Below, piece by piece: positions 6,142 to 21,883 of a stretch of DNA of 35,827 bases. Numbering within the stretch: the stretch's first letter is position 1; each line of letters opens with the position of its first letter. A program made the translations under genes and the position numbers. The notes beneath the pieces are model-generated. The model worked only from the letters and a program-made list of their open reading frames with translations. It did no database searches and was not told the origin of the DNA. This stretch comes from a virus (Duplodnaviria > Heunggongvirae > Uroviricota > Caudoviricetes). The stretch lies in the IMG/VR virus record IMGVR_UViG_2534681737_000011; one strand, written 5' to 3'.

Positions 6142-8049
6142 ATGAAACTGATTTCTAATAAGGCAAAATTAAAAAAGATTCTCAGAAATGCAGCCAAATA
6201 TATTACGCCACCTCCTAAACTCCTTCCGTCTGAATGGTGCGAAGCGAATATGGTGCTGGTAGATGGTCCTCAAGCGGGGGATAAAGTTAAATTGTTGTCA
6301 TTCCAAAAAGGCATGATTGATGCACCTTTCCTTGAGAACAAGAAAAAGTATGTCCTGATGACCAGTGCGCAGATCGGAAAAACTACCATCTTGAACGGCA
6401 TCCTGTTTAACCAGATGGCTAACGATCCATGCAATATGATTATCGGACAATCAACCGCTAAAGAAATGTCTCAATATCTCGCGGGTAAGATCCGACCGTC
6501 TATCGAAGCATGTGATGCATTAAAAGACGTGGTTACAGACAAGAATGATCGTAATGCGGTTAACAACAATAACCAACTCCAGCTAAAAACGAATCACTTC
6601 CTGTACATGGTATCGCTTACCAGTCCATCAACCCTACGTGGTAAGACCGCAAAGGTTGGATTGCTTGACGAAATCGATGCTGCTACAGCCTCAGAAGAAG
6701 GTGATCCGGTGGCACTGGCTGCTAACCGTTTAACTACTTTTGGAGATGAGGGTCGATTAGTCGTATCCAGTACCCCGACCAGTAAGCTGGGAAGCATTAA
6801 CCAGCAATGGTTATCAAGCGATATGCGTATGTTTTTTGTTCCGTGTCCTCATTGCGGTAGACACCAGGTGATCGAGTGGGAAAACGTTCAATTTGAATGG
6901 CGTAACATCGATGGTAAGAACTTACCCGATCCTGATACCGCTCGTTATATTTGCCCTCACTGTAAGCAATCATGGACAGAAGGGGAACGAATCAGGGCAG
7001 TAGCGCAAGGCGAGTGGAGAGCAACCCGTGAAAGTGAAGTAGCAGGATTCTGGATCAGTCGTCTATATTCACCTTTCAGCACGATCCGCGCTTGTGTGGT
7101 TGATTTTAGTCATGCGTGGCAATCCTTTGATTTACAATCATTTTATAACACCGTATTAGGTAAGGTGTACGACGATCAGGACACGGCAGTAGAAGCAAAT
7201 GAACTGGAACAACTCAAAACAGATGTTTCTATCGAGAATATCCCAGATGACGTGATTTTCTTGTGCTCAGGAATTGACCAACAATTAGACCGCGCAGAAT
7301 CTACCATCTTAGGCGTAGCGAAAGATAAGGTTTACATTCTGGATCACCGCAGCTTTTACGATCATAACTGTGAACGATATGAATCACCTGTTTGGGATCG
7401 TCTGGTTAACTTCAAGAAAACCAAATTCTATAACGTTAATGGTGAACGTGTGCCAATGCTCGCCAGTTTCCTTGATACATCGAACGGTCGATTCACTCAA
7501 GCCGGATACCGTATTTGCGGCAAGTGGAAGAACCTACACGCGATCAAAGGTAGTTCGTCTGGTAATGCTCCAGTGATTCCGGTTAAACCTACCCGCACAG
7601 GTGGTCATGAATTGCTTATGCTGGGTGTTAACGTTGGGAAATCCGCTGTTCGTGAAATGTTGGTTAGAAACCTGAAAGACAATCCTCACATCGGCTTAGA
7701 AATATCAGAAACCGTTCCTGATGATTATCTCGATCAGCTTTTGAGTGAATCCATCAAGCGTACTACTACTGGCGTGCGTTGGGTGAAAAATCCAGGTAGT
7801 ACCCGAAACGAGGCTCTCGACTGTCTGGTTTATAGCTATGCTGCTTCTCGCTACGTTCTTTCAAAAATGTCATGGGATAAACTCATTGCAATGAAAGACA
7901 GCTTAAACCGTGTTGTCGAAGAATCCGTAGAAGCTCCTAAAACGCAATCTGACGAGCAAATCGAAGAAACTAAGCCAATCACACGACCACAACGTCAAAA
8001 CATCGCCAGACGCCCAAATAGAGGCCGTAGCTGGGTAACATCGTTCTAA
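6142..8049 (+). CDS. terminase large subunit, lambda GpA-like
   Basis: Walker A (SAQIGKTT) and Walker B (VGLLDEID) motifs; C-terminal region with CPHCG ... CPHC metal-binding motifs typical of GpA-type terminases; lies directly upstream of the portal gene. Confidence 0.85.
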
Positions 8050-8626: not shown

Positions 8627-10138
8627 ATGTTTAATCTTTTTCGACGCAATAAGGCGGTAGAAACTCCAGTTAAAACTAATCACCGCCAGCAACAACCAAA
8701 AATTTTCATCGATAAGCAAGTAGAAAAATTCCAGAAAGACCTATCTAAACGAAGTTTAGGTCTGGTTGGTGATCGCATTGATGGATCGCTTCAACAAGAC
8801 ACCATTACCGGAACCTTCAATAAGGCTCTCAAATCGAACGGTAAGCGCCTTTATGATCAGGGTCGTACTCTGGCTATAAACAATGCTGTAGGCAAGCGAT
8901 ACAAGCAGTATATCGTTGACCAAGTTGTTGGTACGGGGCTTGATCCGAAACCATCAATCGTTAAATCAAATGGCAAACTTGACACCGCACTGAATAAGCA
9001 GATCGAGAATGCTTTCTGGAAGTGGGCGCAGAGTGCTAAACGCTTCTCTCGCAACGGTCGCTTTAACTTCCGTGAAATGCTGGCAATGGCAGAATCTGAA
9101 CGTGTTCAGGGTGGAGAATGCTTCATCGTTTTAACCAAAGAGAACAATGAGTTACAAGTTTCTATTCTGTCTGCTGATAGGTGCGACTGGTCGCTTAGTC
9201 GTGAAATAAGCAAAGAACGTGCGATCTATCAGGGGATTGAGTATGACGTAGACACAATGCGCCCTGTAGCATACTGGTTTAGAAAAATCAATCTACTGAC
9301 TCAGACCTACACTGGCGAAAATTATCGCGTAGATGCTTCTCAGGTGTGCCACTACTACCAGCCACTGTGCGCGGAAAGTTTACGTGGTGTGACTGACTTC
9401 CTGCCAGTGATTAAGGATATTGCGCATCAAGAAGCGTTCCGCGAAACCGCGATCGTCCAGAAACGTATTGCAGCTAGCTCTATGGGCTTTATTGAACGTC
9501 CGAAAGATTCTGGTGACGATTTTGATACTGGTGAAGAGGATGAACAATATCAAGCGCCGGAAGTAGTACAGGACTTTGCACCGGGTACTATTCAGGAATT
9601 GCCGGAAGGGGCAACGATCAAGAGCATCCAGGCGACGCAAAGCGGTGATGATTTCAATTCCTTCAATGATGCGATGTTTACTAGCGTATCAATGGGCTTA
9701 GGCGTGTTCAAACAGGGCTTAACAGGAGATTGTTCACAGATCAACTACTCAGCCGCACGTTTTGGGGAACTAACCCAGCGTAACCGCATTAAAGCACTGC
9801 AAAACAAATTGATTGAAACAGTGGTATTGCCAATTTTTGAAGCATATCTACGCCATTATTCCGCGCGTGGTATTGTTCCGATTCGTATTACTGCAATTCC
9901 GCATATTATCGATAATACAACTATTATTCGTCCGCGTTTTGAATCCGTCGATCCTATTAAAGACGTAAACGCCGAGATTGCTTTAATTCAAAATGGTCTT
10001 AAATCACGTACTGCCGTTATATTGGAACGTGGTGATGATCCTGAAAAAGTATTCTCAGAGATTCAAGCCGAAAAGAGCGCACTAAATATTATCGTTAATG
10101 GCGAGGGTGAAGAAAAAAATTCCCCAGCCGATCCCTAA
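8627..10138 (+). CDS. portal protein (lambda-like)
   Basis: 503-aa ORF immediately after the terminase region and before the protease-capsid gene; size and position fit a portal; acidic C-terminal tail. Call rests mainly on synteny. Confidence 0.7.
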   Translation: MFNLFRRNKAVETPVKTNHRQQQPKIFIDKQVEKFQKDLSKRSLGLVGDRIDGSLQQDTITGTFNKALKSNGKRLYDQGRTLAINNAVGKRYKQYIVDQVVGTGLDPKPSIVKSNGKLDTALNKQIENAFWKWAQSAKRFSRNGRFNFREMLAMAESERVQGGECFIVLTKENNELQVSILSADRCDWSLSREISKERAIYQGIEYDVDTMRPVAYWFRKINLLTQTYTGENYRVDASQVCHYYQPLCAESLRGVTDFLPVIKDIAHQEAFRETAIVQKRIAASSMGFIERPKDSGDDFDTGEEDEQYQAPEVVQDFAPGTIQELPEGATIKSIQATQSGDDFNSFNDAMFTSVSMGLGVFKQGLTGDCSQINYSAARFGELTQRNRIKALQNKLIETVVLPIFEAYLRHYSARGIVPIRITAIPHIIDNTTIIRPRFESVDPIKDVNAEIALIQNGLKSRTAVILERGDDPEKVFSEIQAEKSALNIIVNGEGEEKNSPADP

Positions 10139-10183
10139 TAACCAACGGGGGCGCAATGCCCCCAATTAATTAAAGGTGATTAA

Positions 10184-12190
10184 ATGCTTAAATTTCGCCG
10201 CGATCTTAACGGTTACGGTGGAGTTATTAACGAAGGGCATAACGATCAATACGAATTTGAAATTGCTTTCTCCAGTGAACAGCCGTATCAGCGCCAATTC
10301 TGGGATGAGCAAAATCAAGAGATGGTGGTACTAGATGAAATTCTGGTACATACACCGGAAGCGGTTGATCTGTCTCGTCTGAATAATAACGCTCCGTTGC
10401 TGTTCAATCATAATTTCGATAATCACATTGGTGTCGTTTGTAACGCTCGAATCGATGCGGATAACGTAGGCCGTGCTCTGGTTAAATTCTCTAAGCATGG
10501 CACTTTGGCTAATGATATTCGCAATAAAGTCATTGAAGGTACGATGGAAAAAATTTCTGTCGGTTATGACATTAAAGAATATCACATCGACTACACCAAA
10601 GGACAATTGATTGTTACTAAGTGGGCACCCTATGAACTCTCATTTGTCACCGTTCCCGCAGACGATACGGTCGGTTTAAATCGCTCTCTAAATACTATCA
10701 CAGTTAATTTGGAGGCTAAACGCGATATGACTAAAGAACAAATCGAAGAAATCAAAGAAGAACAAGAAGCCGCTCAGGTTGAAGAAACTCCGGTAGAAGA
10801 AAATAAAGAATCGGAAGTTGAAGAAACTCAAGAGCGCCAAGTTGAAGAGAATAAAGAAAATGAAAATCTCGAAGACGGAAAAGACGCTGAACATCCTGAA
10901 AGTGTTGATGATGATAGTTCAACTGTTCGGGAAGAAGAAGAAGTAAAAGAAGAACGTGAAGCCGCTCCGGTTGAAGAAGAAAAAATTGAAGTGGCTGAAC
11001 GTTCCGAAGAAGACGAATTAGAAATTCGCGAAATTGCACGCGAACTAAATATTAACGAAGACGATGAAGAATTTAAACGCGCATTGACAAATAAAGAAAT
11101 TACGCCGGAAGCATTCCGCACTAAGGCACTAAATAATCTCGTCAATGCTCAACGTAATAACGAACAAATTAATAAGGAACAAATCATGGAAAAAACTTTC
11201 GATCTTAATAACGTAATCCGCTCCCTGGTAGATGGCGACGTGCTCGGCGCTAACGAAGCTGAATATTCCGCTATGGCTGCTACTGCAACTATGCAGCGTG
11301 GTCGTGCTGCTCGTGGTGGCTCTGTATTCGTTCCGGCTGCTGCTATGCGTGCTGCTGCTGCTGGTAACACCAAAGCTGACCTGACTGCTATCACCGACGA
11401 AAAACTGCTGACTGAATCCTACATCGAAATGCTGATGCCGGAATCCGTTCTGGGTCGTCTGGGTGTGACTGTTTACAGTGGCTTGACTGCTCCGACCGCT
11501 ATTCCAAAAATGACTAAATCCAGCGTTGACGCTTTCGGCTTCGTTGATGAAAACGGTGCTGCACCGGAAGGCAAAGCTGAATTTGCAAACGTGAAACTGT
11601 CTCCTAAGACTTTTGCTGGTGGCAACCCGATCAGCCGTCAGAGCATTAAAACCGTTCCGGGTATCGCTACCCTGATCACTGATCACATCAACCAGGCTGT
11701 TCGCATCAAACTGGAACAACTGATTCTGTCTGACAAAGACAATGAGCGCGGTCCTGCTGGTCTGGTTAAACAACTGGTTGATGCAAGCCGTGTTACTAAG
11801 AAAGCCGCTTTCAGCTACAAAGACTTCCTGAAAGAAATTGCAGCACTGACCGACGCTGGCGTTCCTGCTCAGGCGATCAAGTTTGCGATGAGCGGTGCAA
11901 CTGCTGCTGAACTGGAATCTACCCTGAAAGATAACGGTGTTTCCGGTTATATCATCGAAAACGGCAAACTGGCTGGTTACGATGTAGTTACTTCTGGTGT
12001 TATCCCGGCAGATCACATCGTTCTGGGTGACTTCTCCGGTATTACTATCGGTGAGTGGGGCGGTCTGGAACTGGATATGGACGACACCACCTACCGTGCA
12101 CAGTCCGCTATCGTTCCGCGTATCTGGGTAGATCTGGACTATGTTGTAACCCAGCCGGAAGCTCTGAAAGTTCTTCACATCTCCGAATGA
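10184..12190 (+). CDS. fused prohead protease / acidic scaffold-like linker / HK97-fold major capsid protein
   Basis: N-terminal about 170 aa match the HK97-type prohead protease pattern (LLFNHNFDNHIG ... SVGYDI ... ELSFVTVPADD); Glu-rich low-complexity segment at about 10730-11070; C-terminal about 330 aa capsid-like. Ends in TGA-A. Confidence 0.75.
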   Translation: MLKFRRDLNGYGGVINEGHNDQYEFEIAFSSEQPYQRQFWDEQNQEMVVLDEILVHTPEAVDLSRLNNNAPLLFNHNFDNHIGVVCNARIDADNVGRALVKFSKHGTLANDIRNKVIEGTMEKISVGYDIKEYHIDYTKGQLIVTKWAPYELSFVTVPADDTVGLNRSLNTITVNLEAKRDMTKEQIEEIKEEQEAAQVEETPVEENKESEVEETQERQVEENKENENLEDGKDAEHPESVDDDSSTVREEEEVKEEREAAPVEEEKIEVAERSEEDELEIREIARELNINEDDEEFKRALTNKEITPEAFRTKALNNLVNAQRNNEQINKEQIMEKTFDLNNVIRSLVDGDVLGANEAEYSAMAATATMQRGRAARGGSVFVPAAAMRAAAAGNTKADLTAITDEKLLTESYIEMLMPESVLGRLGVTVYSGLTAPTAIPKMTKSSVDAFGFVDENGAAPEGKAEFANVKLSPKTFAGGNPISRQSIKTVPGIATLITDHINQAVRIKLEQLILSDKDNERGPAGLVKQLVDASRVTKKAAFSYKDFLKEIAALTDAGVPAQAIKFAMSGATAAELESTLKDNGVSGYIIENGKLAGYDVVTSGVIPADHIVLGDFSGITIGEWGGLELDMDDTTYRAQSAIVPRIWVDLDYVVTQPEALKVLHISE

Positions 12191-12325
12191 ACTAGCGTAG
12201 AACCTTCTGTACCTTCCCCCGATTTGGGGGAAGAAAATCTGATTCCATCTCAGGAAGAAGAATCCCAGACGGTTACGGCGAAAGCCACAGCTAAAAAGGT
12301 GGGACGTCCACCGAAAGCAAAATAA
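12191..12325 (+). other. stop-free in-frame extension after the capsid TGA (44 codons, ends ...TVTAKATAKKVGRPPKAK)
   Basis: Translated directly: TSVEPSVPSPDLGEENLIPSQEEESQTVTAKATAKKVGRPPKAK then TAA; same frame as the capsid gene; contains the 24-nt block at 12272-12295 that is identical to 18186-18209. Confidence 0.5.
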
Positions 12326-12330
12326 TAATT

Positions 12331-12357
12331 AGCCCTGCCTAACGGTGGGGCTTTTTT
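12331..12357 (+). terminator. rho-independent terminator after the capsid gene and its extension
   Basis: AGCCCTGCC-taac-GGTGGGGCT (two G-U wobble pairs) followed by TTTTTT; near-identical to the terminator at 18239-18267. Confidence 0.7.
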
Positions 12358-12387
12358 GTATGTAAATACTCCATAAAGGGGGTAACT

Positions 12388-12678
12388 ATGTTCAAATTAT
12401 CAGAATCACAATTATCAAGAATGTTTAAGAGTGCTCCTGTATTTGTGGTGGAAGGTGGTAAATCAATTCGTGCTTATCATGAAATTACTACTACCGACGA
12501 ATCAGGTGTAATGACAGAAACCGAATTTCTATTCTGTCGTGAGGGAGACTTAAAGCAAGGTGATATTGTCACAGTAGAAAACCAGCGTTTCAAAGTTCAA
12601 TACGTTAAGCGCAATGGTGACAATACTTGTGATTGCTTTATCACTTTAGCAGGGGGTACACATGCTCGCTACCGTTAA
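12388..12678 (+). CDS. small virion or head-tail joining protein candidate
   Basis: 96-aa ORF with AAGGGGGTAACT ribosome-binding motif, immediately downstream of the capsid gene; function inferred from position only. Confidence 0.5.
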   Translation: MFKLSESQLSRMFKSAPVFVVEGGKSIRAYHEITTTDESGVMTETEFLFCREGDLKQGDIVTVENQRFKVQYVKRNGDNTCDCFITLAGGTHARYR

Positions 12679-13084
12679 TAATATGCCGAGACTGAAAATC
12701 AAACGCGCCTTGCAAGATATTATCGAACAAGATTTAGGTCTGGCTTTAAACGTAGAACAAACTCAGCAAGGCTTTAGTGATGACGTGGTTTGTTGGATCA
12801 CCGGAATGAATGAGACTTACACTAGGGTCCGTGGTGGTAATGCAATGCAAGCTGAATGCGTTATCGAAATGCAATTATATTCTCAGATTCATGAAACCAA
12901 AATTCATGAGGGTATTTGCCAGATAATCCAGATTCAGCCGGATAACCCACGTTTTAAAGATTTGGGCTTCTCTATTTCAGATATCACTCCAGTAGCCTCT
13001 AATACCGATTATGACGCTGATTCTAGTGATGGGGGTATCGTTGGGACACTTAGTCTTAAATTTTCTTATCTAGCGCGTTTTTAA
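12662..13084 (+). CDS. small virion or head-tail joining protein candidate
   Basis: 140-aa ORF overlapping the previous gene by 17 nt with a GGGGGT ribosome-binding site; position suggests a connector or completion protein. Confidence 0.5.
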   Translation: MLATVNNMPRLKIKRALQDIIEQDLGLALNVEQTQQGFSDDVVCWITGMNETYTRVRGGNAMQAECVIEMQLYSQIHETKIHEGICQIIQIQPDNPRFKDLGFSISDITPVASNTDYDADSSDGGIVGTLSLKFSYLARF

Positions 13085-13093
13085 GGGGTAATA

Positions 13094-13927
13094 ATGAATA
13101 TTACACAAGATAACTTAGATATTTTCACTGGATCACATGTTGAAGTGTCGATCTCTAACCAGATAGACAATCAGGTCGACTTTTTCGATCCTAGCTTTAG
13201 TTCTATGGAGAACATCGCAGCATTCCCTACGCTAACCGAATCCACAGAGATAGAAACTCTGGAAGAGTACGATCAGGACGCTACGGGGAAACTTGCTGGT
13301 TATCGTAGACTGGAACCGACGACACTCACATTAAACCGTGTTCTTGACGATGAACATCAAGCAATGTTGATGAAAGCGGTAGAGGATAAAACACCTTTAC
13401 GCTTCCGTATGTTCTATGTTGTGAACTCTGGCTATAGTGCTGCTAACACTGGTTACTATGTCATCTATGATGCTTATGTCACTAGCCATAAAACACGAGG
13501 CGGTGATAACAAAGCTGTAACTATGGAATTCAAACTTGAACCAGATGGCGGGATTCTTGCAAGGGGTATAGCGACCGAGGGAAAACTCATCCGACAAGGG
13601 GATTTTGGCGTAGGCTCAGGCGTTAGCCCATTCACCGGACCTATTGATAGTGAATCTCTGACAGGAAACCGCTTTGTAACCTACAAAGGAACGGCTAGCA
13701 CTAACCCTTATGGTGCTGATACATCGTTAATTCATCTTCAAGCTAATGAGCATGGCGCATGGCAATTAACGTGTAATACTTCCGGTGCTCCACGTTTGCG
13801 GGTACGAAATATTCAGGACAACGGAAAATCGGAATGGATTAAAGTCTATACAACAAACGAGAAGCCTACGCCAGCCGAAATTAATGCGGTTGCTAAGACT
13901 GATAGAATCGACTTCGGGGAATACTGA
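13094..13927 (+). CDS. putative virion structural protein (unassigned)
   Basis: 277-aa ORF with AAGGGGTAAT motif; ends in TGA-T followed three codons later by TAA. Confidence 0.5.
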   Translation: MNITQDNLDIFTGSHVEVSISNQIDNQVDFFDPSFSSMENIAAFPTLTESTEIETLEEYDQDATGKLAGYRRLEPTTLTLNRVLDDEHQAMLMKAVEDKTPLRFRMFYVVNSGYSAANTGYYVIYDAYVTSHKTRGGDNKAVTMEFKLEPDGGILARGIATEGKLIRQGDFGVGSGVSPFTGPIDSESLTGNRFVTYKGTASTNPYGADTSLIHLQANEHGAWQLTCNTSGAPRLRVRNIQDNGKSEWIKVYTTNEKPTPAEINAVAKTDRIDFGEY

Positions 13928-13953
13928 TCACTTCTCTAAATAAAACATGACGC

Positions 13954-13986
13954 GGGGAGGTTAATTCCTCCCTTATTCCTGTTTTA
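13954..13986 (+). terminator. hairpin plus T-rich tract, terminator candidate
   Basis: GGGGAGG-ttaa-ttCCTCCC followed by TTATTCCTGTTTTA. Confidence 0.45.
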
Positions 13987-14001
13987 TAGTGAGGTGATTC
14001 A

Positions 14002-17000
14002 ATGGAGTCTATCCAATTTAAACGCACACAGACGGCTGGTAAAAAGCCAACGCCAGAACAACTGGCACAGGGTGAGGTAGCAATTAACCTTGCCGACCAC
14101 GTAATTTACACCAAAGACAAAAATAACGCAGTAGTTCAAATCAGCGTTTCCCCAGAAAGTCATAATGCTTTAAACACGAAAGTAGACAATAACAAGAAAA
14201 CTACTGATTCTACTATCGCGGCAAATAAAACCGAAGCTGCTAACGCTCTGGCTACCGCTAAATCTGAACTGAATAACACTATTAACACGAAAGATACAGC
14301 GACCAATAAGCGCATTGATGCTACTAACACCACTGTTAGTAACTTAACCCAGACAGTCACGGCAAATAAAACCGACGCTGACACCAAGATCAATAACCTT
14401 ACGGGGACAGTTGCGGCAAACAAATCAGCTATTGAAACTACCGTAGCGAATAACAAACGAGACGCGGACAATAAAATCTCAGCTTTAACCACTACGGTTA
14501 ATGACAACAACACCGCGATCAATAGCCGTGTTGATACCACTAACACCAATGTTAGCAATCTGACCAAAACCGTTACAGCTAACAAGTCTGATGCTGATTC
14601 CAAGATCTCCAGCTTAACGAGTACCGTTGCAGCTAACAAATCAGCCATTGAAACTACGGTAGCGAACAATAAACGCGATGCTGATACGAAGATCACCAAC
14701 TTAACCAACACTGTTAATAGCAACCATACCGCCATTAACAACAAGGTTGACCAGAATAAAACCAGCACAGATGCAGCGATTGCAGCCGCTAACAAGCGAA
14801 TTGATGGTATTGAAGGTAGCAACGATGCTCTTTACATCAAGAAGAACACAAATACCTATCATCACGGCTATCTGTTAACCAAAACAGCTAACTATTTTGA
14901 TGATGCTGGTGCTCGTAACCTTGATTATTTTGGTGCGTTTCGTCCGAACAATGCCGAAGGTTGGGGTAACTTAATCCTTAACATTCCTCATTCTGGCGGT
15001 AAAGCACACGGTCGCGGCTTTGAGTTCCATTATGGGTCTAGCTCATCTCAGGTTAAAACCTATGGCTTTGATAAGGACGGTAACAAGAGATTCAGCTATC
15101 GCATGTACCATGAAGGTGATAAGCCGACTCCTGATGAATTGGGTGTGTATAGTAAAGCCGAAGTTGATCAGATGTTCATCAAGAACGTTAGAATGACCGT
15201 TCCTTCTGGTGATGCTACTCGTGGATACTTCAAGATCGCAACCGCTACGATCCCACAGAATGGTCGAATGGTAATGCTTCGTATCTTCGGTGGTAATGGT
15301 TATAACGTTAACTCTTATGATCAGGTTGACTTTGTAGAAATTGTCATCCGTTCCGGTAACAATAACCCGAAAGGCGTTAGTATTGCTGCTTATCGTCGAA
15401 ATGCTCTGAACGTTCATCAAGTATTTGCGGTTAATACTTCCGGTGATAACTACGATATCTACGTTAACTACGGTCGTTACACCGATAACGTTATTGTCGA
15501 ATACGGTAAAACTGATGGCGTTACTCTGACAGTACATGATGTTCCTGAATTAACTCTCGTTAAACCTTCTGTTGGTGTTACCGATGCTCGTGTTATTACG
15601 ATGTTCAACACCGAAAACAAAGCCGGAACGTTGATGTTTGATAATAACGGTCAAGGAACGTATGATATTATCAGTCTGAATAACTCAACTGATACAAATA
15701 AAAAATATCTTCGTAAATTCCGTAGCAAATCAGCCGAAACAATTTGGCATGAAGTTGTTGAAGGTAGTGTCTATCGTTTAGCTACTGGTGTTACTGATAC
15801 AGCGGATCAATTAAAAATTGATTTTAATGGTGTTACTGTAAACCGCCTTTTTGTTAAGGGTAATAACGCTATTAGAATGGAACGCCGCGACGGGCAAAGT
15901 AACTATATCGAATTCTTTGATTATCGTTCTGGTGCTAATCGTCGTCAGGGTTATCTAGGTTATGGTGATGGTACTACTAACACTGTACAGTTAGTAAATG
16001 AATTAACGGAAGGTAATAACTCTGTAAGACTGGATGAGAACGGTCAAGTTTCATTATCCACTGGCAAAACAAAAATTGTGTACACAAACGGCGAATATGT
16101 TGCTGCATACGCTAACGCATTCCGTATGATTTACGGTAACTACGGTGCATTCTGGCGTAATGATGGTGGTAAAGTTTATCTTCTTTCAACTGCCGAAAAT
16201 GATAAATTTGGTGGCTGGAACGGCAACCGACCATTCATTTACGATTTGACTACTGGTAAAGTTACTTTAGGTGGTGATGGTAACGAGGGTGCATTAGTTC
16301 TCGAACGAGATAGCCGTGCTGCTCGATTTGCTGGTGATATTTACGTCGGTAAAGGAATGTTAACCTTTGATGCTGGTCGATTAAATTCTCGCGACTACTT
16401 CCGGTTTAACCATTGGGGCGATAGCAATAACGCTCGTGATAATATCTTACAGCTTGACGATAGCAAAGGTGCACACTTCACCACTGAACGTACTTTAGCA
16501 ACTGGTGCGATTAAAACTAAATTCTTCGGTGATTTAGAAGCTGCTGGACAAATTCGCTGGGGTAAAGGTACTGCAACTTCTACGTTTAATATTCGTGCAT
16601 GGGGCGCTGATGCTCGTAAACAAGTGTTTGAATGTGCTGATGAAAGCGGTTGGCACTGGTATACCCAACGTGCTGGCGGTCCTGGTACTGAATTAATCGA
16701 GTTTGCTATTAACGGTACTGTTAAGCCTAAAGCAATCCACACTGGAGGCAATATCACCCTGAATGGTGCTGATATTGAGTTTAAGCGCACTGGTAACAAG
16801 CATTTATGGTTTAGAGATCCAAACGGCTTAGAGTTGGGTCTGTTGTACTGCGATGATGCTGGTGTTATGCGTATGCGCGGTGAGAAACAAGCCGAAGTCT
16901 GGAAATTCGGCGGTAAGATGATTCACCTTGAAACGGGCACTGTATCCGGTGGCGGTAATGGTCTTATTCGTGGTAGCGTTGCTGGTGGTAGTTGGGCTAG

Positions 17001-17589
17001 CTGGCGTGATCGTGCTTCCGGTATTCAGGTCGACTGCCAGCAATCAACCGATTCCGCTCATAACATCTGGAAAGCAACCCATCAAGGTAAATATCATATC
17101 GCCGCAATGGGTGTACACGTTCCTAGCGGTACTATCGGTAACGCTCTTGTTCGTCTCCATGTTCATGATGCCGTCTTTGACTTTAACGCATCCGGTGACA
17201 TGACGGCAGGTCGTAACGGTAGCTTTAACGATGTTTACATTCGCTCTGACTCTCGTCTGAAAATTAACAAGGAAGAATTACAGGACGGTGCATTAGAGAA
17301 AGTAAACTCCCTGAAAGTATACACCTACGATAAAGTTAAATCTCTTTCTGATGACACGGTAATTAAACGCGAAGTAGGTATTATTGCTCAGGATCTGGAA
17401 AAAGTATTGCCGGAAGCAGTAGGTATTCAATCTACCGAAGATCCAGAACATCCAGAAGCAATCAAGACTATTTCTAACTCTGCTGTCAATGCTTTAATCA
17501 TCAAGGCTATGCAGGAAATGGATGCTAAGTATCAAGCTAAGATTGATGCACTGACTAAAGAATTAGCCGAACTCAAAGCAACTAAATAA
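14002..17589 (+). CDS. long tail fibre protein with C-terminal S74-type intramolecular chaperone domain
   Basis: 1195-aa ORF with GAGGTGA ribosome-binding site; N-terminal repetitive T/N/K/A-rich region with two tandem units of about 72 aa; C-terminal SDSRLK motif followed by a coiled-coil tail, as in self-cleaving fibre and tailspike chaperone domains. Confidence 0.8.
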   Translation: MESIQFKRTQTAGKKPTPEQLAQGEVAINLADHVIYTKDKNNAVVQISVSPESHNALNTKVDNNKKTTDSTIAANKTEAANALATAKSELNNTINTKDTATNKRIDATNTTVSNLTQTVTANKTDADTKINNLTGTVAANKSAIETTVANNKRDADNKISALTTTVNDNNTAINSRVDTTNTNVSNLTKTVTANKSDADSKISSLTSTVAANKSAIETTVANNKRDADTKITNLTNTVNSNHTAINNKVDQNKTSTDAAIAAANKRIDGIEGSNDALYIKKNTNTYHHGYLLTKTANYFDDAGARNLDYFGAFRPNNAEGWGNLILNIPHSGGKAHGRGFEFHYGSSSSQVKTYGFDKDGNKRFSYRMYHEGDKPTPDELGVYSKAEVDQMFIKNVRMTVPSGDATRGYFKIATATIPQNGRMVMLRIFGGNGYNVNSYDQVDFVEIVIRSGNNNPKGVSIAAYRRNALNVHQVFAVNTSGDNYDIYVNYGRYTDNVIVEYGKTDGVTLTVHDVPELTLVKPSVGVTDARVITMFNTENKAGTLMFDNNGQGTYDIISLNNSTDTNKKYLRKFRSKSAETIWHEVVEGSVYRLATGVTDTADQLKIDFNGVTVNRLFVKGNNAIRMERRDGQSNYIEFFDYRSGANRRQGYLGYGDGTTNTVQLVNELTEGNNSVRLDENGQVSLSTGKTKIVYTNGEYVAAYANAFRMIYGNYGAFWRNDGGKVYLLSTAENDKFGGWNGNRPFIYDLTTGKVTLGGDGNEGALVLERDSRAARFAGDIYVGKGMLTFDAGRLNSRDYFRFNHWGDSNNARDNILQLDDSKGAHFTTERTLATGAIKTKFFGDLEAAGQIRWGKGTATSTFNIRAWGADARKQVFECADESGWHWYTQRAGGPGTELIEFAINGTVKPKAIHTGGNITLNGADIEFKRTGNKHLWFRDPNGLELGLLYCDDAGVMRMRGEKQAEVWKFGGKMIHLETGTVSGGGNGLIRGSVAGGSWASWRDRASGIQVDCQQSTDSAHNIWKATHQGKYHIAAMGVHVPSGTIGNALVRLHVHDAVFDFNASGDMTAGRNGSFNDVYIRSDSRLKINKEELQDGALEKVNSLKVYTYDKVKSLSDDTVIKREVGIIAQDLEKVLPEAVGIQSTEDPEHPEAIKTISNSAVNALIIKAMQEMDAKYQAKIDALTKELAELKATK
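14320..14750 (+). repeat. two tandem copies of an about 216-bp coding repeat inside the tail fibre gene
   Basis: Protein units IDATNTTVSNLTQTVTANKTDADTKINNLTGTVAANKSAIETTVANNKRDADNKISALTTTVNDNNTAINSRVD and TTNTNVSNLTKTVTANKSDADSKISSLTSTVAANKSAIETTVANNKRDADTKITNLTNTVNSNHTAINNKVD; also visible at nucleotide level. Confidence 0.75.
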
Positions 17590-17596
17590 TAAAAGT

Positions 17597-17622
17597 CGGG
17601 GGACTAGTTCCCCCGTTATAAC
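17597..17622 (+). terminator. hairpin after the tail fibre gene, weak terminator candidate
   Basis: CGGGGGA-ctagt-TCCCCCG followed by TTATAAC, a short U-tract. Confidence 0.4.
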
Positions 17623-17645
17623 AAATTCAATTAAGGGGTAATTAT

Positions 17646-18122
17646 ATGTCTCAACAATTCAAAGATATTTTTACTGGTGGTCTGGTAAGTATGTTCTATC
17701 AAGCGGACACTACTAATGCCGATCTCTCGGCAGAAAGCTACGAAGAAATTAAAGAGTGTGCTGGTTTTCCTGAAACTGGTATCGAACGCGGTACTGTAGA
17801 AGTTAAATCCTTCTCTTCTCAGTATAACCGTAAACTGGTAGGGAAACTGAACGTTCCTGATCTGACTCTGACCGTTAACTACATCCCAGGTGATGCGGTA
17901 CACGCTAAACTGGATAAGGCAGCCGAAGATGGCACGCGTATTCAGATTAAGATTGAATATTATGTTGATGCTGGTAAGCAGACTGGTATTCGCACCGCTT
18001 TCAACGGCTTTATCTCTAAAGCGGCTATGCAGGGTGGCGATGAAGAAGTCGTAACTAAAGAATATACCTTTGCTGTTGATGGTGCTCCGATCAAACAGGA
18101 AGTGTTTACCGCTGGTGGTTGA
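17646..18122 (+). CDS. major tail (tube) protein, gpV-like
   Basis: 158-aa ORF with AAGGGGTAAT motif; segments (ADLSAESYEE ... GFISKA) recall the lambda gpV N-domain; lies directly upstream of the chaperone pair and tape measure gene. Ends in TGA-A. Confidence 0.6.
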   Translation: MSQQFKDIFTGGLVSMFYQADTTNADLSAESYEEIKECAGFPETGIERGTVEVKSFSSQYNRKLVGKLNVPDLTLTVNYIPGDAVHAKLDKAAEDGTRIQIKIEYYVDAGKQTGIRTAFNGFISKAAMQGGDEEVVTKEYTFAVDGAPIKQEVFTAGG

Positions 18123-18233
18123 ACTTTCGAAGAACAACCCCAGCCAATTCAAGATGAACCTACGGTGATTCCTGAAATTGAGGTTGTTACGGCGAAAGCC
18201 ACAGCTAAACGAAGCCGCAAGGCTAAAGATTAA
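18123..18233 (+). other. stop-free in-frame extension after the major tail TGA (36 codons, ends ...VVTAKATAKRSRKAKD)
   Basis: Translated directly: TFEEQPQPIQDEPTVIPEIEVVTAKATAKRSRKAKD then TAA; same frame as the tail gene; contains the 24-nt block at 18186-18209 identical to 12272-12295. Confidence 0.5.
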
Positions 18234-18238
18234 TTATA

Positions 18239-18267
18239 AGCCCTGCCTTAATGGTGGGGCTTTTTTA
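18239..18267 (+). terminator. rho-independent terminator after the major tail gene and its extension
   Basis: AGCCCTGCC-ttaat-GGTGGGGCT followed by TTTTTT; near-identical to 12331-12357. Confidence 0.7.
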
Positions 18268-18281
18268 TTGGAGTAATCAAA

Positions 18282-18788
18282 ATGGCAAATGTCGTTAAAG
18301 TTCCCGGCTGGATCGGGTCATCGGCTGTATCAGTGACGGGTAAGCGATGGATGAAAGAAGCATTAACAGCTTTAAAAGTTCCGGCTCCGCGTAATATGTC
18401 GGCAATGGCTGGTCGTGGTATGGATACGGTTGTTGCTACTGCTGCATGGTCTACCTCATTGGGTAATAACTGGGGTGTAACTGCTTCAAACTATCCAGTA
18501 ACTGACATGCGCGGTAAAGGATCTATGGAGAACCCCGAAAACGTGGGCGTAGGCCATCTGGTTGGCGTTATCGTTGGTCAATTCAATGGCGGTACTCCTA
18601 CTATGGCTGTATATCTCCAGAACGGTAGAGCGGGGAATATAACCGTTAATTTGGGTGGTGCTGCTGTCACTGTTCCTTATAACAGTATGCAAAGCGGTTT
18701 TCATTACTATTGGTTAAGCAATCCTCCGGCTGCTTTCCTCAATAACATTAAGAAGACTGGCACTAAGCAGACTTTGAAAATCTCTTAA
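18282..18788 (+). CDS. hypothetical tail-module protein
   Basis: 168-aa Gly/Ala-rich ORF with GGAG ribosome-binding site, between the major tail protein and chaperone genes. Confidence 0.5.
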   Translation: MANVVKVPGWIGSSAVSVTGKRWMKEALTALKVPAPRNMSAMAGRGMDTVVATAAWSTSLGNNWGVTASNYPVTDMRGKGSMENPENVGVGHLVGVIVGQFNGGTPTMAVYLQNGRAGNITVNLGGAAVTVPYNSMQSGFHYYWLSNPPAAFLNNIKKTGTKQTLKIS

Positions 18789-18833
18789 ATTCTAAATAAA
18801 TACAGCGTAATCACTATTAATGAGGAAACAATA

Positions 18834-19142
18834 ATGAATCTGAATGAAATGCTGAAAGCTCTTTCTCCGAAACGTGAATCTTTAACCCTCGGAGGATTTA
18901 CGTTCTATGCTCGCCCTATGTCGGTACAAGAATTTAATGAACATGTTTTCAATACTGATAAAAAAGACCGTGATGAACGCTCTATTCTTCGTTGTATTGA
19001 AGATGAAGACGGTAAGCCAGTATTTGAATCTATTGAACAAGTTAAGGCATTGTATACTAGCGTCCGCAGCGAATTAATCGGCTTAGTTGCTCAAGCATCA
19101 TTGATGAAAGATGCGGCGGTAATTGAAAACGAGGTAAAGTAA
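18834..19142 (+). CDS. tail assembly chaperone (gpG-like position)
   Basis: 102-aa ORF with GAGGAA ribosome-binding site, directly upstream of a -1 frame ORF and the tape measure gene. Confidence 0.6.
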   Translation: MNLNEMLKALSPKRESLTLGGFTFYARPMSVQEFNEHVFNTDKKDRDERSILRCIEDEDGKPVFESIEQVKALYTSVRSELIGLVAQASLMKDAAVIENEVK

Positions 19143-19150
19143 ACCCGCTC

Positions 19151-19525
19151 TTGAATTTTTATTTTCGGCAAATGATGCGTCGGGGCTTGAGTAAAGATGA
19201 GATGGATAATATGCCAATTACGCTATTTTGGGCGTTGCATATATTCGATACATATCTTGAACCACAAAGCCCCCTGTTTCAAGATGCGCGACATGCACAG
19301 TCGATGTATTACATGCACGTTACATCTCCTAACATGACTCGTGAATGGTTGAATAAAATCAATGTTAACCAATTCCGAATGATTAAGGACGACAAGCAAT
19401 TTAAAACGCAAGAAGAAATAAAAGAAATTGCTCGTAAGAAAGAGGAAGAACGTAACGCTGCTTTGGTTGATAGTTTTTTCGACGCTTCATTATTACAAAA
19501 GCTCAAGAGCGGACAATTGGGGTAA
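19151..19525 (+). CDS. tail assembly chaperone, gpT-like frame (possibly expressed by -1 frameshift from 18834..19142)
   Basis: ORF in the -1 frame relative to the upstream chaperone, open from 19127; no convincing ribosome-binding site or ATG at its 5-prime end; in the same frame as the tape measure gene, separated from it by one TAA and one codon. Confidence 0.45.
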   Translation: MNFYFRQMMRRGLSKDEMDNMPITLFWALHIFDTYLEPQSPLFQDARHAQSMYYMHVTSPNMTREWLNKINVNQFRMIKDDKQFKTQEEIKEIARKKEEERNAALVDSFFDASLLQKLKSGQLG

Positions 19526-19528
19526 TTT

Positions 19529-21883
19529 ATGACAAGACATATAGTAACAATAGAAGGAGATAATGACGGTCTAAGGAGAAGTACCAATCAGGCGATAGAG
19601 ATGCTTGATAACCTTTCAGAAAGGGCAATGAATCTTGATTTGTCTGGTGGTTTATCTAGTTTAAGTGGAACCCTTCGCGGAACTGGTGGATCGCTTGCTT
19701 TGGCTGCTGGTGGTTTTGTTGGTTTGGCTGCTGGCGCTATTTCTGCTGCAAATGCCATCGGTGATTATGTAAAGGAATACAGCGAAGTTTCAAAAGCAAC
19801 TGGTTTAACCGTCGAAACACTCCAGAAATTAGAGAAGCAATTCTCCGGTACTGGCTTAACCGTTGAGAAATTTGGTGATATTAACAAAGACACCTTAGAT
19901 AAGCTGGCTGATGCATGGCGTAACGGTGGCGGTATTGAAGACGACCTAGAAAGTGTAGGTTTGAAGATTAAAGATTATGCCGAGTTTATGAACGATCCAC
20001 AAGGCGGGATGAAAGCGGCGATCAAGGTCTTCTATGATATGCGCAAGGCTGGTGCGTCTATCGCTGATGTTAAGTTTATGATGGAATCGTTAGCCAGTGA
20101 TTCAAGTCATATGGCTGATGAATTGCAGAAATACGGATCTTATCAGGAAGCTGTAAACGCCATTAATCAGCAAACTGTTAAAATCACCAATGACACAGCC
20201 GAAGAATATAATAAATTCTCTAAAAATATGGATACCCTTACCGATAACTTAAAGGGTATGGCTGCAAATGCACTAAATCCAGTTGTTGAAGGGATGAATA
20301 ATCTTTACAACTGGTTTGATAAAGATTGGGAAAAGACCGCTTTATTCAACGCATTAAAGACTTTTAATGAAAGGTTTGAAAAAGCTCGCCAGAATATGGC
20401 TATGGCTAACGGTGGTTTTATTAACAAGCATGGTTATAGTTCTACTGGTCTAGCGGGTGGACAAGCCAGCTTCAACAATAAACCAAATTATCCTGATCGT
20501 TGGGTGGATAGTGAAGGCGTTACCCGTGATAAAAACGGTGATCCGGTAATTACTATCACTGGAAATAAATCGGATACCGGATTTACCCCAACGGGTCAAG
20601 GTGGAGGCGTCACCGGACCATCGAAAAAAGAACAAGAAGAAGCCAAGAAGAAAGCGGAAGAGGCAGCTAAAAAGGCTAAGGAAGCCGCAGAAAAAGCACA
20701 GAAAGCACGCGAGGATGCAATCAAGCGACTGAATGCTCTTGATGTTAAATTGCAAGGACAGACAGCCGCGTCTATTGCTTCTCAAAACAAGCAGTTAGAA
20801 GCCAGCTTGAAAGATTTAGACACTGCTTTAGATATGGGCTTAATCTCTCAGCAAGACGCAGCCGCTAAACGTCAGCAACTGTTAGATCAGAACGCAGAAA
20901 ACATCTATAAAATGATGTTGGGTGCTGATCCGATTGATGCTCTGAATGCCTTAACAGTTTTGCAACAAATCAGGGACAACGAGCTAGAAAGCCATAAACG
21001 GTTACTTGATGGTAAAGCTATCTCCTACGAAGAATATATGCGTCGTGTGAATGATACCGAGCAAAACTATTCTCAGATTGATAGTCAGTTACAGGGAATG
21101 GATGGTTTTAAAACCAATCAATTGACTAATAGCTTAGACTATCAGGATTCAAATAACCCGTTTGCTAAATTTAATGCAATCGATCAAGAGAAATCGGAAG
21201 CTGAACAAGATTATAAGACCGAAAAACTCAATATTGATGGTATTAATGATCCAGCTAAACGGATGGCTGCATTAGAAAAACTCAATGAAAACCATCAAAA
21301 ACGGATGGCTGCAATTGAAAAGAAATATGCTGATGCTCGCCAGTCAATAGCCGATGATATGTATGGCGGTTTTGCTGCTGCAATGACTCTCTTCGGGCAG
21401 GAAAACACTAAAGCTATGCAGACGGCTTTCAATGCTCATAAAGCATTCTCCATTGGACAAGCGACGGTGAACATGTGGACGGCTGCTACCGATGCATGGA
21501 ACGATCCGACCAACGTAACCACAGGACAAAAGATCGCTGCTGCTGCATTGGCTGTTTCTCAGAACATGGGGAACATCGCAAACATCAAATCGACTAACGT
21601 TAGCGGTATGGCTCATGATGGTATCGATAATATCCCTCGTGAGGGTACATGGTTGCTTGATAAGGGTGAACGAGTAGTTGATCAGCGTACTAACGGTGAT
21701 TTGAAAGACTTCTTATCTGCTCAAAAATCAGGCGGTGGTAACTCTCAGCCGATTGAAGTTAATGCGCCTTTGAACATTAACGGCAACGTTAATAGCTCAG
21801 ACAAGATGGTTATGGATGCTATCAAACGTCACGCTAAGTTAGTTGCTCAGGCGGTAGAAGACGCACAGCGTCGTAAGATGTAA
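19529..21883 (+). CDS. tail tape measure protein
   Basis: 784-aa ORF after the chaperone pair; Gly-rich N-terminal segment, long helical regions (KKEQEEAKKKAEEAAKKAKEAAEKAQKARE), typical position and composition. Confidence 0.8.
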   Translation: MTRHIVTIEGDNDGLRRSTNQAIEMLDNLSERAMNLDLSGGLSSLSGTLRGTGGSLALAAGGFVGLAAGAISAANAIGDYVKEYSEVSKATGLTVETLQKLEKQFSGTGLTVEKFGDINKDTLDKLADAWRNGGGIEDDLESVGLKIKDYAEFMNDPQGGMKAAIKVFYDMRKAGASIADVKFMMESLASDSSHMADELQKYGSYQEAVNAINQQTVKITNDTAEEYNKFSKNMDTLTDNLKGMAANALNPVVEGMNNLYNWFDKDWEKTALFNALKTFNERFEKARQNMAMANGGFINKHGYSSTGLAGGQASFNNKPNYPDRWVDSEGVTRDKNGDPVITITGNKSDTGFTPTGQGGGVTGPSKKEQEEAKKKAEEAAKKAKEAAEKAQKAREDAIKRLNALDVKLQGQTAASIASQNKQLEASLKDLDTALDMGLISQQDAAAKRQQLLDQNAENIYKMMLGADPIDALNALTVLQQIRDNELESHKRLLDGKAISYEEYMRRVNDTEQNYSQIDSQLQGMDGFKTNQLTNSLDYQDSNNPFAKFNAIDQEKSEAEQDYKTEKLNIDGINDPAKRMAALEKLNENHQKRMAAIEKKYADARQSIADDMYGGFAAAMTLFGQENTKAMQTAFNAHKAFSIGQATVNMWTAATDAWNDPTNVTTGQKIAAAALAVSQNMGNIANIKSTNVSGMAHDGIDNIPREGTWLLDKGERVVDQRTNGDLKDFLSAQKSGGGNSQPIEVNAPLNINGNVNSSDKMVMDAIKRHAKLVAQAVEDAQRRKM

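Follow-up and report, generated by a model that had tools for sequence, protein, structure and literature searches.

The 35,827-nucleotide (nt) stretch of DNA held as IMG/VR virus record IMGVR_UViG_2534681737_000011 (hereafter the window, meaning that stretch at its full length) is an Escherichia coli prophage in which two structural genes, encoding the major tail tube protein and the major capsid protein, probably give rise to minor, C-terminally extended products through readthrough of a UGA stop codon. Specifically, the tube open reading frame (ORF; 17646-18122, 158 amino acids) ends in a TGA at 18120-18122 that is followed by an A at 18123, the start of an ACT codon, and the 36 sense codons at 18123-18230, in frame with the tube gene, encode TFEEQPQPIQDEPTVIPEIEVVTAKATAKRSRKAKD. 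The capsid gene ends in the same manner, and in both genes the TGA opens a cassette that recurs in relatives of the prophage. Judged from comparative sequence data, the probability that the extension is translated via UGA readthrough and maintained by selection is placed at roughly three in four.

The tail tube locus comprises the following features.

17646-18119, plus strand: body of the major tail tube protein gene, 158 codons (sub-threshold Pfam matches, AlphaFold2 (AF2), Foldseek, and Prokaryotic Genome Annotation Pipeline (PGAP) naming)
18120-18123, plus strand: candidate leaky stop signal, TGA plus A at position +4 (TGA-A in 17/17 unique tail cassettes)
18123-18188, plus strand: linker part of the putative readthrough extension, TFEEQPQPIQDEPTVIPEIEVV (frame 0, stop-free, net charge -6, 4 prolines)
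18186-18209, plus strand: 24-nt block, codons VTAKATAK (identical to 12272-12295)
18189-18230, plus strand: basic tip of the putative readthrough extension, TAKATAKRSRKAKD (6 Lys/Arg, net charge +5)
18231-18233, plus strand: TAA closing the tail extension (4 nt upstream of the terminator stem)
18238-18268, plus strand: intrinsic terminator, 10-bp stem then T run (hairpin 18238-18262)

They confirm an initial annotation made from the sequence alone, which had described TGA-A and 36 stop-free in-frame codons at the tail gene. The product of that gene is a lambda-like siphophage tail tube protein: the AF2 model has a core with a predicted local distance difference test (pLDDT) score of 80-90, Foldseek places its best PDB matches among siphophage tail tubes, the lambda gpV tube domain being one of them (E ~1e-6 to 1e-7), Pfam matches are to lambda-like tail-tube families (all below the curated cut-off), and PGAP names the homologs 'phage tail tube protein'. 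The tail extension itself scores a pLDDT below 50, that is, predicted disorder, and a Pfam search of both the tail and the capsid extension peptides returned no match. Inspection of the extension sequence found no internal start codon with a Shine-Dalgarno sequence, which makes an independent small gene inside the extension unlikely.

The extension cassette and its coding signatures

The corresponding features of the capsid locus are listed below.

10184-12187, plus strand: body of a prohead protease-scaffold-major capsid fusion gene (Pfam Peptidase_S78 and Phage_capsid)
12188-12191, plus strand: capsid gene TGA plus A at position +4 (gene 10184-12190 ends TGA-ACT; TGA-A in 23/23 unique capsid cassettes)
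12191-12322, plus strand: putative capsid readthrough extension, 44 codons, TSVEPSVPSPDLGEENLIPSQEEESQTVTAKATAKKVGRPPKAK (frame 0; then TAA TAA)
12272-12295, plus strand: capsid copy of the 24-nt block (repeat family D10)
12331-12358, plus strand: intrinsic terminator behind the capsid extension (hairpin 12331-12352)

Genes of the window end in TAA 30 times, in TGA five times and in TAG once, and TGA-A is found at the capsid and tube genes only. The other three TGA genes read TGA-T and meet a second stop after 3, 13 and 3 codons; among them is the gene at 13094-13927, which the initial annotation had set apart on account of its TGA-T and its next in-frame stop after 3 codons, both of which are correct. 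At a GC content of 41.8%, about 6% of codons would be stops, and because this composition gives stop-free runs of 36 and 44 codons with p ~0.11 and ~0.07, respectively, the open frames within the window alone, without relatives, are at most suggestive as evidence for translation. The weight of the readthrough case is carried by comparative data, not by the window.

Two further similarities between the loci had been pointed out from the sequence alone, and both hold. Firstly, the 24-nt block, GTTACGGCGAAAGCCACAGCTAAA, is 100% identical between 18186-18209 and 12272-12295 (repeat family D10), where an arithmetic estimate gives ~2e-6 chance 24-mer matches in 35.8 kb. In a scan of IMG/VR this block was found only within the present prophage family, and at every locus where its position was checked it lies at the end of a tube or a capsid gene. 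Secondly, near-identical terminators stand behind both genes: the top two terminator-like hairpins within 10000-20000 are those at 18238-18262 and 12331-12352, which have the same stems and differ only in their loops (TTAAT in the tail, TAAC in the capsid copy). A strong 8-bp hairpin of another kind, CTTCCCCC-GATTT-GGGGGAAG, lies inside the long capsid extension at 12213-12233 over the codons PSPDLGEE; it is kept in all long capsid variants and missing from the short capsid variant and the tail cassette.

From the TGA onward, tail and capsid cassettes align as homologous sequences that start TGA A[CA]T NNC G[AT]A GA[AG] and in which the block then separates a linker from a tip, both of them variable, before the second stop and the terminator. 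Relatives collected from IMG/VR, ENA and RefSeq provided 40 unique cassettes, of which 17 follow a tube gene and 23 a capsid gene. TGA is followed by A in 40/40 (first codon ACT in 33 and AAT in 7), none of the 40 contains an in-frame stop before its end, and 8 further RefSeq genomes keep TGA-A and the same cassette pattern. Conservation of the TGA taken alone is weak evidence, cassette divergence being modest. Cassettes of 27, 28, 33, 36, 39, 41, 42, 43, 44 and 45 codons occur among the 40 (25-45 when a cassette from Providencia, described below, is included), and the length of every indel, in no fewer than eight separate events, is divisible by three, as in the linker variants that distinguish relatives (e.g. 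NEELPLPEPEPLPEHEAVVIPEVEE). The other two plus-strand frames contain 1-6 stops each in the 26 unique versions checked frame by frame, and while ~4.4% of single-base changes could create an in-frame stop, 0 are seen over at least 78 variable sites. The codon-usage score of the extension in frame 0 is 0.30-0.35 per codon, against 0.39 +/- 0.19 for real genes, while frames 1 and 2 score -0.8 to -1.1, like out-of-frame sequence.

The composition of the predicted peptide is similarly maintained. Across cassettes the linker has a net charge of -3 to -9 and 2-6 prolines, and the tip (the last 14 residues) has a net charge of +4 to +6 in six different tip sequences, tail and capsid alike; a charge pattern kept with loose sequence fits a disordered peptide selected for its composition. 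Stop context, frame, codon usage and charge pattern thus support the proposal, put forward in the initial annotation on the basis of Lys/Arg-rich ends that differ in nucleotide sequence, that selection acts at the protein level on a translated extension. Comparison of the 3' modules across relatives pointed the same way, with frame-0 coding signatures kept and the terminator as the sole conserved structure. In tube relatives without the cassette the gene ends in TAA with the terminator directly after, and capsid relatives without it also stop at TAA. Of 5,426 complete E. coli genomes, 54 have the capsid cassette and 22 the tail cassette, in every case on the chromosome; STEC1575, MEI003 and ETEC4090 are examples of E. 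coli strains with the tail cassette.

Movement of the cassette and other apparent routes to a similar tail

Three gene bodies bear the cassette, namely the usual capsid gene, a capsid allele 39% identical to it (L008, L018 and L020) and the tube gene. In one of these, L018, a tail-type tip is found on a capsid cassette, a sign of recombination. A second such sign is found in E. coli E275a (L088, 1519-1700), where a tail cassette is joined to the terminator of a TAA-type tube allele, which places a recombination point between the extension stop and the terminator; the capsid cassette region of the same strain matches 12000-12400 of the window at 100% identity. In prophages L029-L040 the capsid cassette is retained alongside a tube allele, 57-59% identical, that ends in TAA with the terminator directly behind. 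Further afield, a prophage of Providencia sp. JUb39 (L093:3676-3760) carries the cassette behind a capsid gene 44% identical to that of the window, reading TGA ACT AAC GAA GAG and so on for 25 codons, TNEELPEEEPLPVATEKSTKRRKSK, before a TAG and a terminator, and the cassette therefore crosses genus boundaries. A 3' module duplicated by recombination, which the initial annotation had offered as an alternative to readthrough, is thus also a correct description, since the whole cassette including the TGA is common to both genes; it is compatible with readthrough and does not exclude it.

Among INPHARED phage DNA there was no close relative, the single match being phage DCP80 at ~42% amino-acid identity; the tube alignment had no match in the GTDB species-representative genomes; and a protein search with the capsid readthrough product gave 10 matches, none over the extension. 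The DCP80 record (L001, PQ671644.1, Escherichia phage; 141 kb) is labeled Straboviridae/Tevenvirinae and carries an HK97-type protease-capsid fusion and a lambda-like tube gene in the order seen in this prophage family, and its taxonomy label or its assembly may need checking. In dozens of distant tube homologs (within proteins P0049-P0162), 700-1,500 residues in length, the tube domain occupies residues 2-140, and C-terminal additions of 600-1,400 residues follow at the junction where the extension begins. Very large C-terminal additions are thus common among homologs of this tube protein.

Distant relatives appear to reach a similar tail in other ways. On the tube proteins of Edwardsiella (...NVIPEAVAAKEK) and Proteus (...PTHLNLVKEK) the tail is fused directly, Salmonella tube and capsid proteins have short basic C-termini (...GSRK and ...TRVKK, respectively), and other capsid proteins end in ...AEAKAAKQ or ...ETRKAK. 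At the 3' end of the capsid gene, Edwardsiella (L027/L124; L027:1766-1860) reads G GTA AAG CAA GGG TGA and Proteus (L090, 3549-3650) reads G GAA AAG ACG GAG TGA, and the -1 frame from the AAG codon is open as far as the terminator, encoding ARVIPTGREEVSVKSGRKPKTDN and DGVISQAVGSEVSVKKAKKAKAE, respectively. Likewise, L117, L118, L121 and DCP80 (7772-7890) have an A-AAR motif 2-3 codons before the capsid stop, with a -1 ORF whose Lys-rich tip lies close to the terminator; over all these distant capsid ends, Edwardsiella and Proteus included, the -1 ORFs span 13-33 codons. Related phages with the block in another frame had been named in the initial annotation as a finding that would tell against readthrough. 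The capsid genes of Edwardsiella and Proteus do show such an arrangement; there, however, an A-AAG slip motif is located two codons upstream of the stop, which points to access by frameshifting, not to non-coding status.

The Edwardsiella capsid heptamer, G GTA AAG, is identical to the conserved frameshift heptamer of the G/GT tail chaperone genes of the family. In the window a probable G/GT tail-assembly-chaperone -1 site, G GTA AAG TAA, is located at 19133-19142, with the heptamer itself at 19133-19139, and from it the -1 frame leads into the ORF at 19151-19525; the G GTA AAG site is kept in Salmonella, Edwardsiella, Proteus and E. coli relatives, its counterpart in Providencia being A GTA AAG. 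Sequence comparison suggests that the capsid ends of the distant relatives are a -1 frameshift version of the same extension. Together these relatives indicate that a C-terminal tail with a basic tip is a trait of the family, its dosage set in different ways that include the putative frameshift cases.

Points against readthrough and alternative explanations

Several observations weigh against a selected readthrough product. The 40 cassettes are linked by recombination and come mostly from one species, such that they do not amount to 40 independent tests. Since the TGA moves as part of the cassette, the shared frame at the junctions adds no independent evidence, whereas maintenance of the frame inside each lineage does. 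Constraint on the amino acids is weak, with a ratio of nonsynonymous to synonymous polymorphism (pN/pS) of 0.42 in the tail extension, against 0.16 in the tube gene body, and of 0.70 in the capsid extension, against 0.27 in the capsid gene body. Synonymous divergence is lower in the extension (0.16-0.20) than in the bodies (0.29-0.33), and recombination or a role at the RNA or DNA level may contribute to conservation of the block at the nucleotide level. PGAP never annotates the extension. Additionally, RNAalifold applied to 17 relatives found the terminator as the only conserved structure and no covarying pair, and lacking a conserved stimulatory structure, readthrough may be no more efficient than the basal level. 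Natural E. coli isolates may also terminate at UGA better than K-12 does.

Of the competing explanations, the one that survives best, though we consider it unlikely, is that the extension is translated through unavoidable basal leakage of UGA and has no function, selection acting only to keep it harmless. The weak amino-acid constraint, the absence of a stimulatory structure and the shortness and disorder of a peptide without a Pfam family are all as this explanation would have them. Were leakage no more than tolerated, however, the cheapest remedy would be TAA or an early second stop, as seen in the cassette-less relatives and in the 30 TAA genes, yet it is the two most highly expressed late genes that retain the weakest stop context together with 25-45 open codons and a charge pattern. 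Related lineages, moreover, have an equivalent tail that is either fused directly or reached at a -1 slip site.

Somewhat less probable still is a non-coding module, a 3' untranslated region and terminator spreading by recombination among highly expressed late genes, in which the open frame would be incidental. Such a module would account for a block and terminator conserved at the nucleotide level with synonymous divergence below that of the gene bodies, for the recombination evident in the terminator swap of L088 and the tail-type tip of L018, and for a junction frame that is inherited as the TGA moves along. It would not, however, confine indels to multiples of three, nor does it explain why frame 0 is stop-free in 40 variants when the other frames have 1-6 stops, why codon usage is gene-like in frame 0 only, or why the tip stays basic over six different sequences; and as an RNA element it lacks both covariation and an Rfam match, RNAalifold finding the terminator only.

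It is improbable to a further degree that the extension is a decaying remnant, that is, an ancestral fused C-terminal tail cut off by a nonsense mutation and still undegraded. The fused tails on Edwardsiella and Proteus tube proteins and on several capsid proteins offer a conceivable ancestor, but gene bodies have diverged (pS ~0.3) and the extension has undergone many substitutions and at least eight indel events without a frameshift or a stop, three different gene bodies bear the same cassette, and the TGA cassette is found on the 44%-identical capsid gene of Providencia as well.

Scarcely credible is any dedicated decoding of the UGA, be it by selenocysteine, a suppressor tRNA or a reassigned code, for the public gene call with Trp in place of the stop (P0001) comes from code-4 translation of DNA reading TGA, the conserved hairpin just 3' of the UGA that a bacterial selenocysteine insertion sequence would provide is absent (the hairpin of long capsid cassettes starts 22 nt downstream and is missing from short capsid and tail cassettes), Rfam at the gathering threshold gives 0 matches in the window, the sole tRNA call there is a doubtful tRNA-Gln of 91 nt inside an ORF with no credible suppressor tRNA besides, and the long ORFs run uninterrupted under table 11, with no internal TGA, and TGA is found only at five gene ends. 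P0001 (L026), a 198-residue 'readthrough' protein, was considered as a natural, always-on TGG variant and rejected, given that the DNA reads TGA; it is an annotation artefact, apparently of code 4 applied to a short metagenome contig. The tRNA-Gln(UUG) called by ARAGORN at 12849-12939 on the minus strand lies opposite the ORF at 12662-13084, is probably a false positive and would not read UGA.

Decoding, proposed function and relation to known systems

If UGA readthrough is taken as the preferred reading, the simplest and most likely mechanism is context-dependent leakage. In E. coli, UGA with an A at +4 is reported to be especially prone to misreading by tRNA-Trp, and genes with high expression favour UAA as their stop (PMC5289835). 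UGA reporters in K-12 show readthrough of ~2% at 37 C and 4% at 25 C, and efficiency varies with host release factor 2 (RF2), with tRNA-Trp levels and with temperature (PMC10570021). Most ribosomes would accordingly terminate at the UGA through RF2, and a minor share, probably a few per cent or less, would admit the near-cognate Trp-tRNA and, with Trp inserted, continue through the cassette. RNA folding of the tail variant of the window gave a hairpin across the TGA; this hairpin was considered as a stimulator and rejected, since 17 relatives show neither conservation nor covariation of it.

The predicted product is an intact tube or capsid domain followed by a disordered tail made up of an acidic, Pro-rich spacer and a Lys/Arg tip of +4 to +6. 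Because the folded domain would be unchanged, extended subunits would be expected to co-assemble with normal ones, leaving few tails per virion: with subunit numbers extrapolated from lambda-like phages, ~415 for the capsid and ~190 for the tube, readthrough of 0.5-4% would put roughly one to fifteen on each of the two. The tube extension would leave the fold at the point where lambda gpV continues into its outward-facing immunoglobulin (Ig)-like domain, and this position, together with the large additions in distant homologs, makes outward display of the tube tail likely. What such tails do is a matter for tentative proposals. Weak electrostatic adhesion to polyanionic surfaces (lipopolysaccharide, capsule, mucus or extracellular DNA), by analogy with the Ig-like decorations that other phages add by frameshifting, is suggested by the charge pattern and would be the most likely role, though a speculative one to which we assign well under even odds, and other roles such as assembly or DNA binding are possible. 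The broader proposition, on which we are evenly divided, is that a portable recoding cassette (UGA-A, acidic Pro-rich spacer, Lys/Arg tip, strong stop and terminator) recombines between capsid and tube genes and from one Enterobacterales prophage to another, and furnishes virions with a few polyanion-binding whiskers in sub-stoichiometric amounts, fusion, -1 frameshifting and readthrough being interchangeable routes to the tail.

The closest known counterpart is the A1 protein of phage Q-beta, in which low-level insertion of Trp at the UGA of the coat gene gives an extended minor coat protein present in few copies per virion (PMC8067240). Here, as in Q-beta, an in-frame UGA ends a major structural gene, and the Q-beta extension likewise starts with a Pro-rich stretch (PMC8067240). 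Unlike Q-beta, an RNA phage with another coat fold, the present system is a tailed double-stranded DNA (dsDNA) prophage, its extension consists of 25-45 disordered residues in place of a folded domain of ~200, and the same cassette is found on two genes. The stop context of the Q-beta coat gene is likewise UGA-A (UGA ACA). Features expected of readthrough of the Q-beta type are found in the prophage family, namely a maintained in-frame ORF, a conserved TGA-A and coding signatures, the last with pN/pS of only 0.42 and 0.70.

Among tailed phages, Listeria phages PSA, A118 and A500 each make longer C-terminal products from both the capsid (cps) and the tail (tsh) gene by recoding, and the tsh recoding site is at the stop codon itself, CCC_UGA (PMC5009743). 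The parallel lies in putative recoding at the 3' ends of both genes; the differences are that the Listeria phages employ +1 or -1 frameshifts, while the extension described here is in frame 0, with a -1 arrangement in distant relatives only, and that one homologous cassette is common to both genes. T3 and T7 produce a minor capsid species with extra C-terminal residues (10B, from 10A) through a -1 frameshift, and in a 2016 review of recoding the extended minor capsid and tail forms of tailed phages arise by frameshifting (PMC5009743). Targeted full-text literature searches found no report of readthrough at a dsDNA-phage capsid or tail gene. The extension also differs from the Ig-like and FN3 domains added by frameshifting in being 36-44 residues long, without a Pfam match and with a pLDDT below 50. 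A domain of the FN3-like kind is added to SPP1 gp17.1* by a +1 frameshift, and T7 10B is used for surface display. In lambda gpV, whose tube domain is matched here and whose external-domain junction appears to coincide with the start of the extension, the additional domain is, by contrast, present on every subunit and requires no recoding. The product of the G/GT chaperone frameshift at 19133-19142 of the window is an assembly factor, not a structural protein, and that frameshift plays no part at the tube gene.

The portable recoding cassette would, if real, be the first example of conserved stop-codon readthrough affecting structural genes in a tailed dsDNA phage. Confirmation would provide a natural series of fusion, frameshift and readthrough for one decoration with which to test the interchangeability of recoding modes, as well as a parallel in nature to the low-copy phage display that is engineered with a suppressible stop. 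It would also serve as a warning for annotation, as standard pipelines would be missing a product in at least 54 of the 5,426 complete E. coli genomes. Since readthrough depends on RF2, tRNA-Trp and temperature, the number of tails per virion could vary with host physiology.

Several minor observations concern other parts of the window. A Gp38-like adhesin gene (18282-18788) lies directly 3' of the tube terminator, and a tail fibre gene of 1,195 amino acids has T4 Gp34-trimer and Peptidase_S74 domains, such that T4-type fibre modules are present within a lambda-like tail cluster. The same fibre gene contains a 216-nt tandem duplication of 72% identity at 14296-14727. Finally, a TTTTGCCCCTGAAA-like unit occurs six times at 2414-2602 (repeat family D2), the copies spaced by 13-43 nt, in an array that looks like iterons or operator sites.

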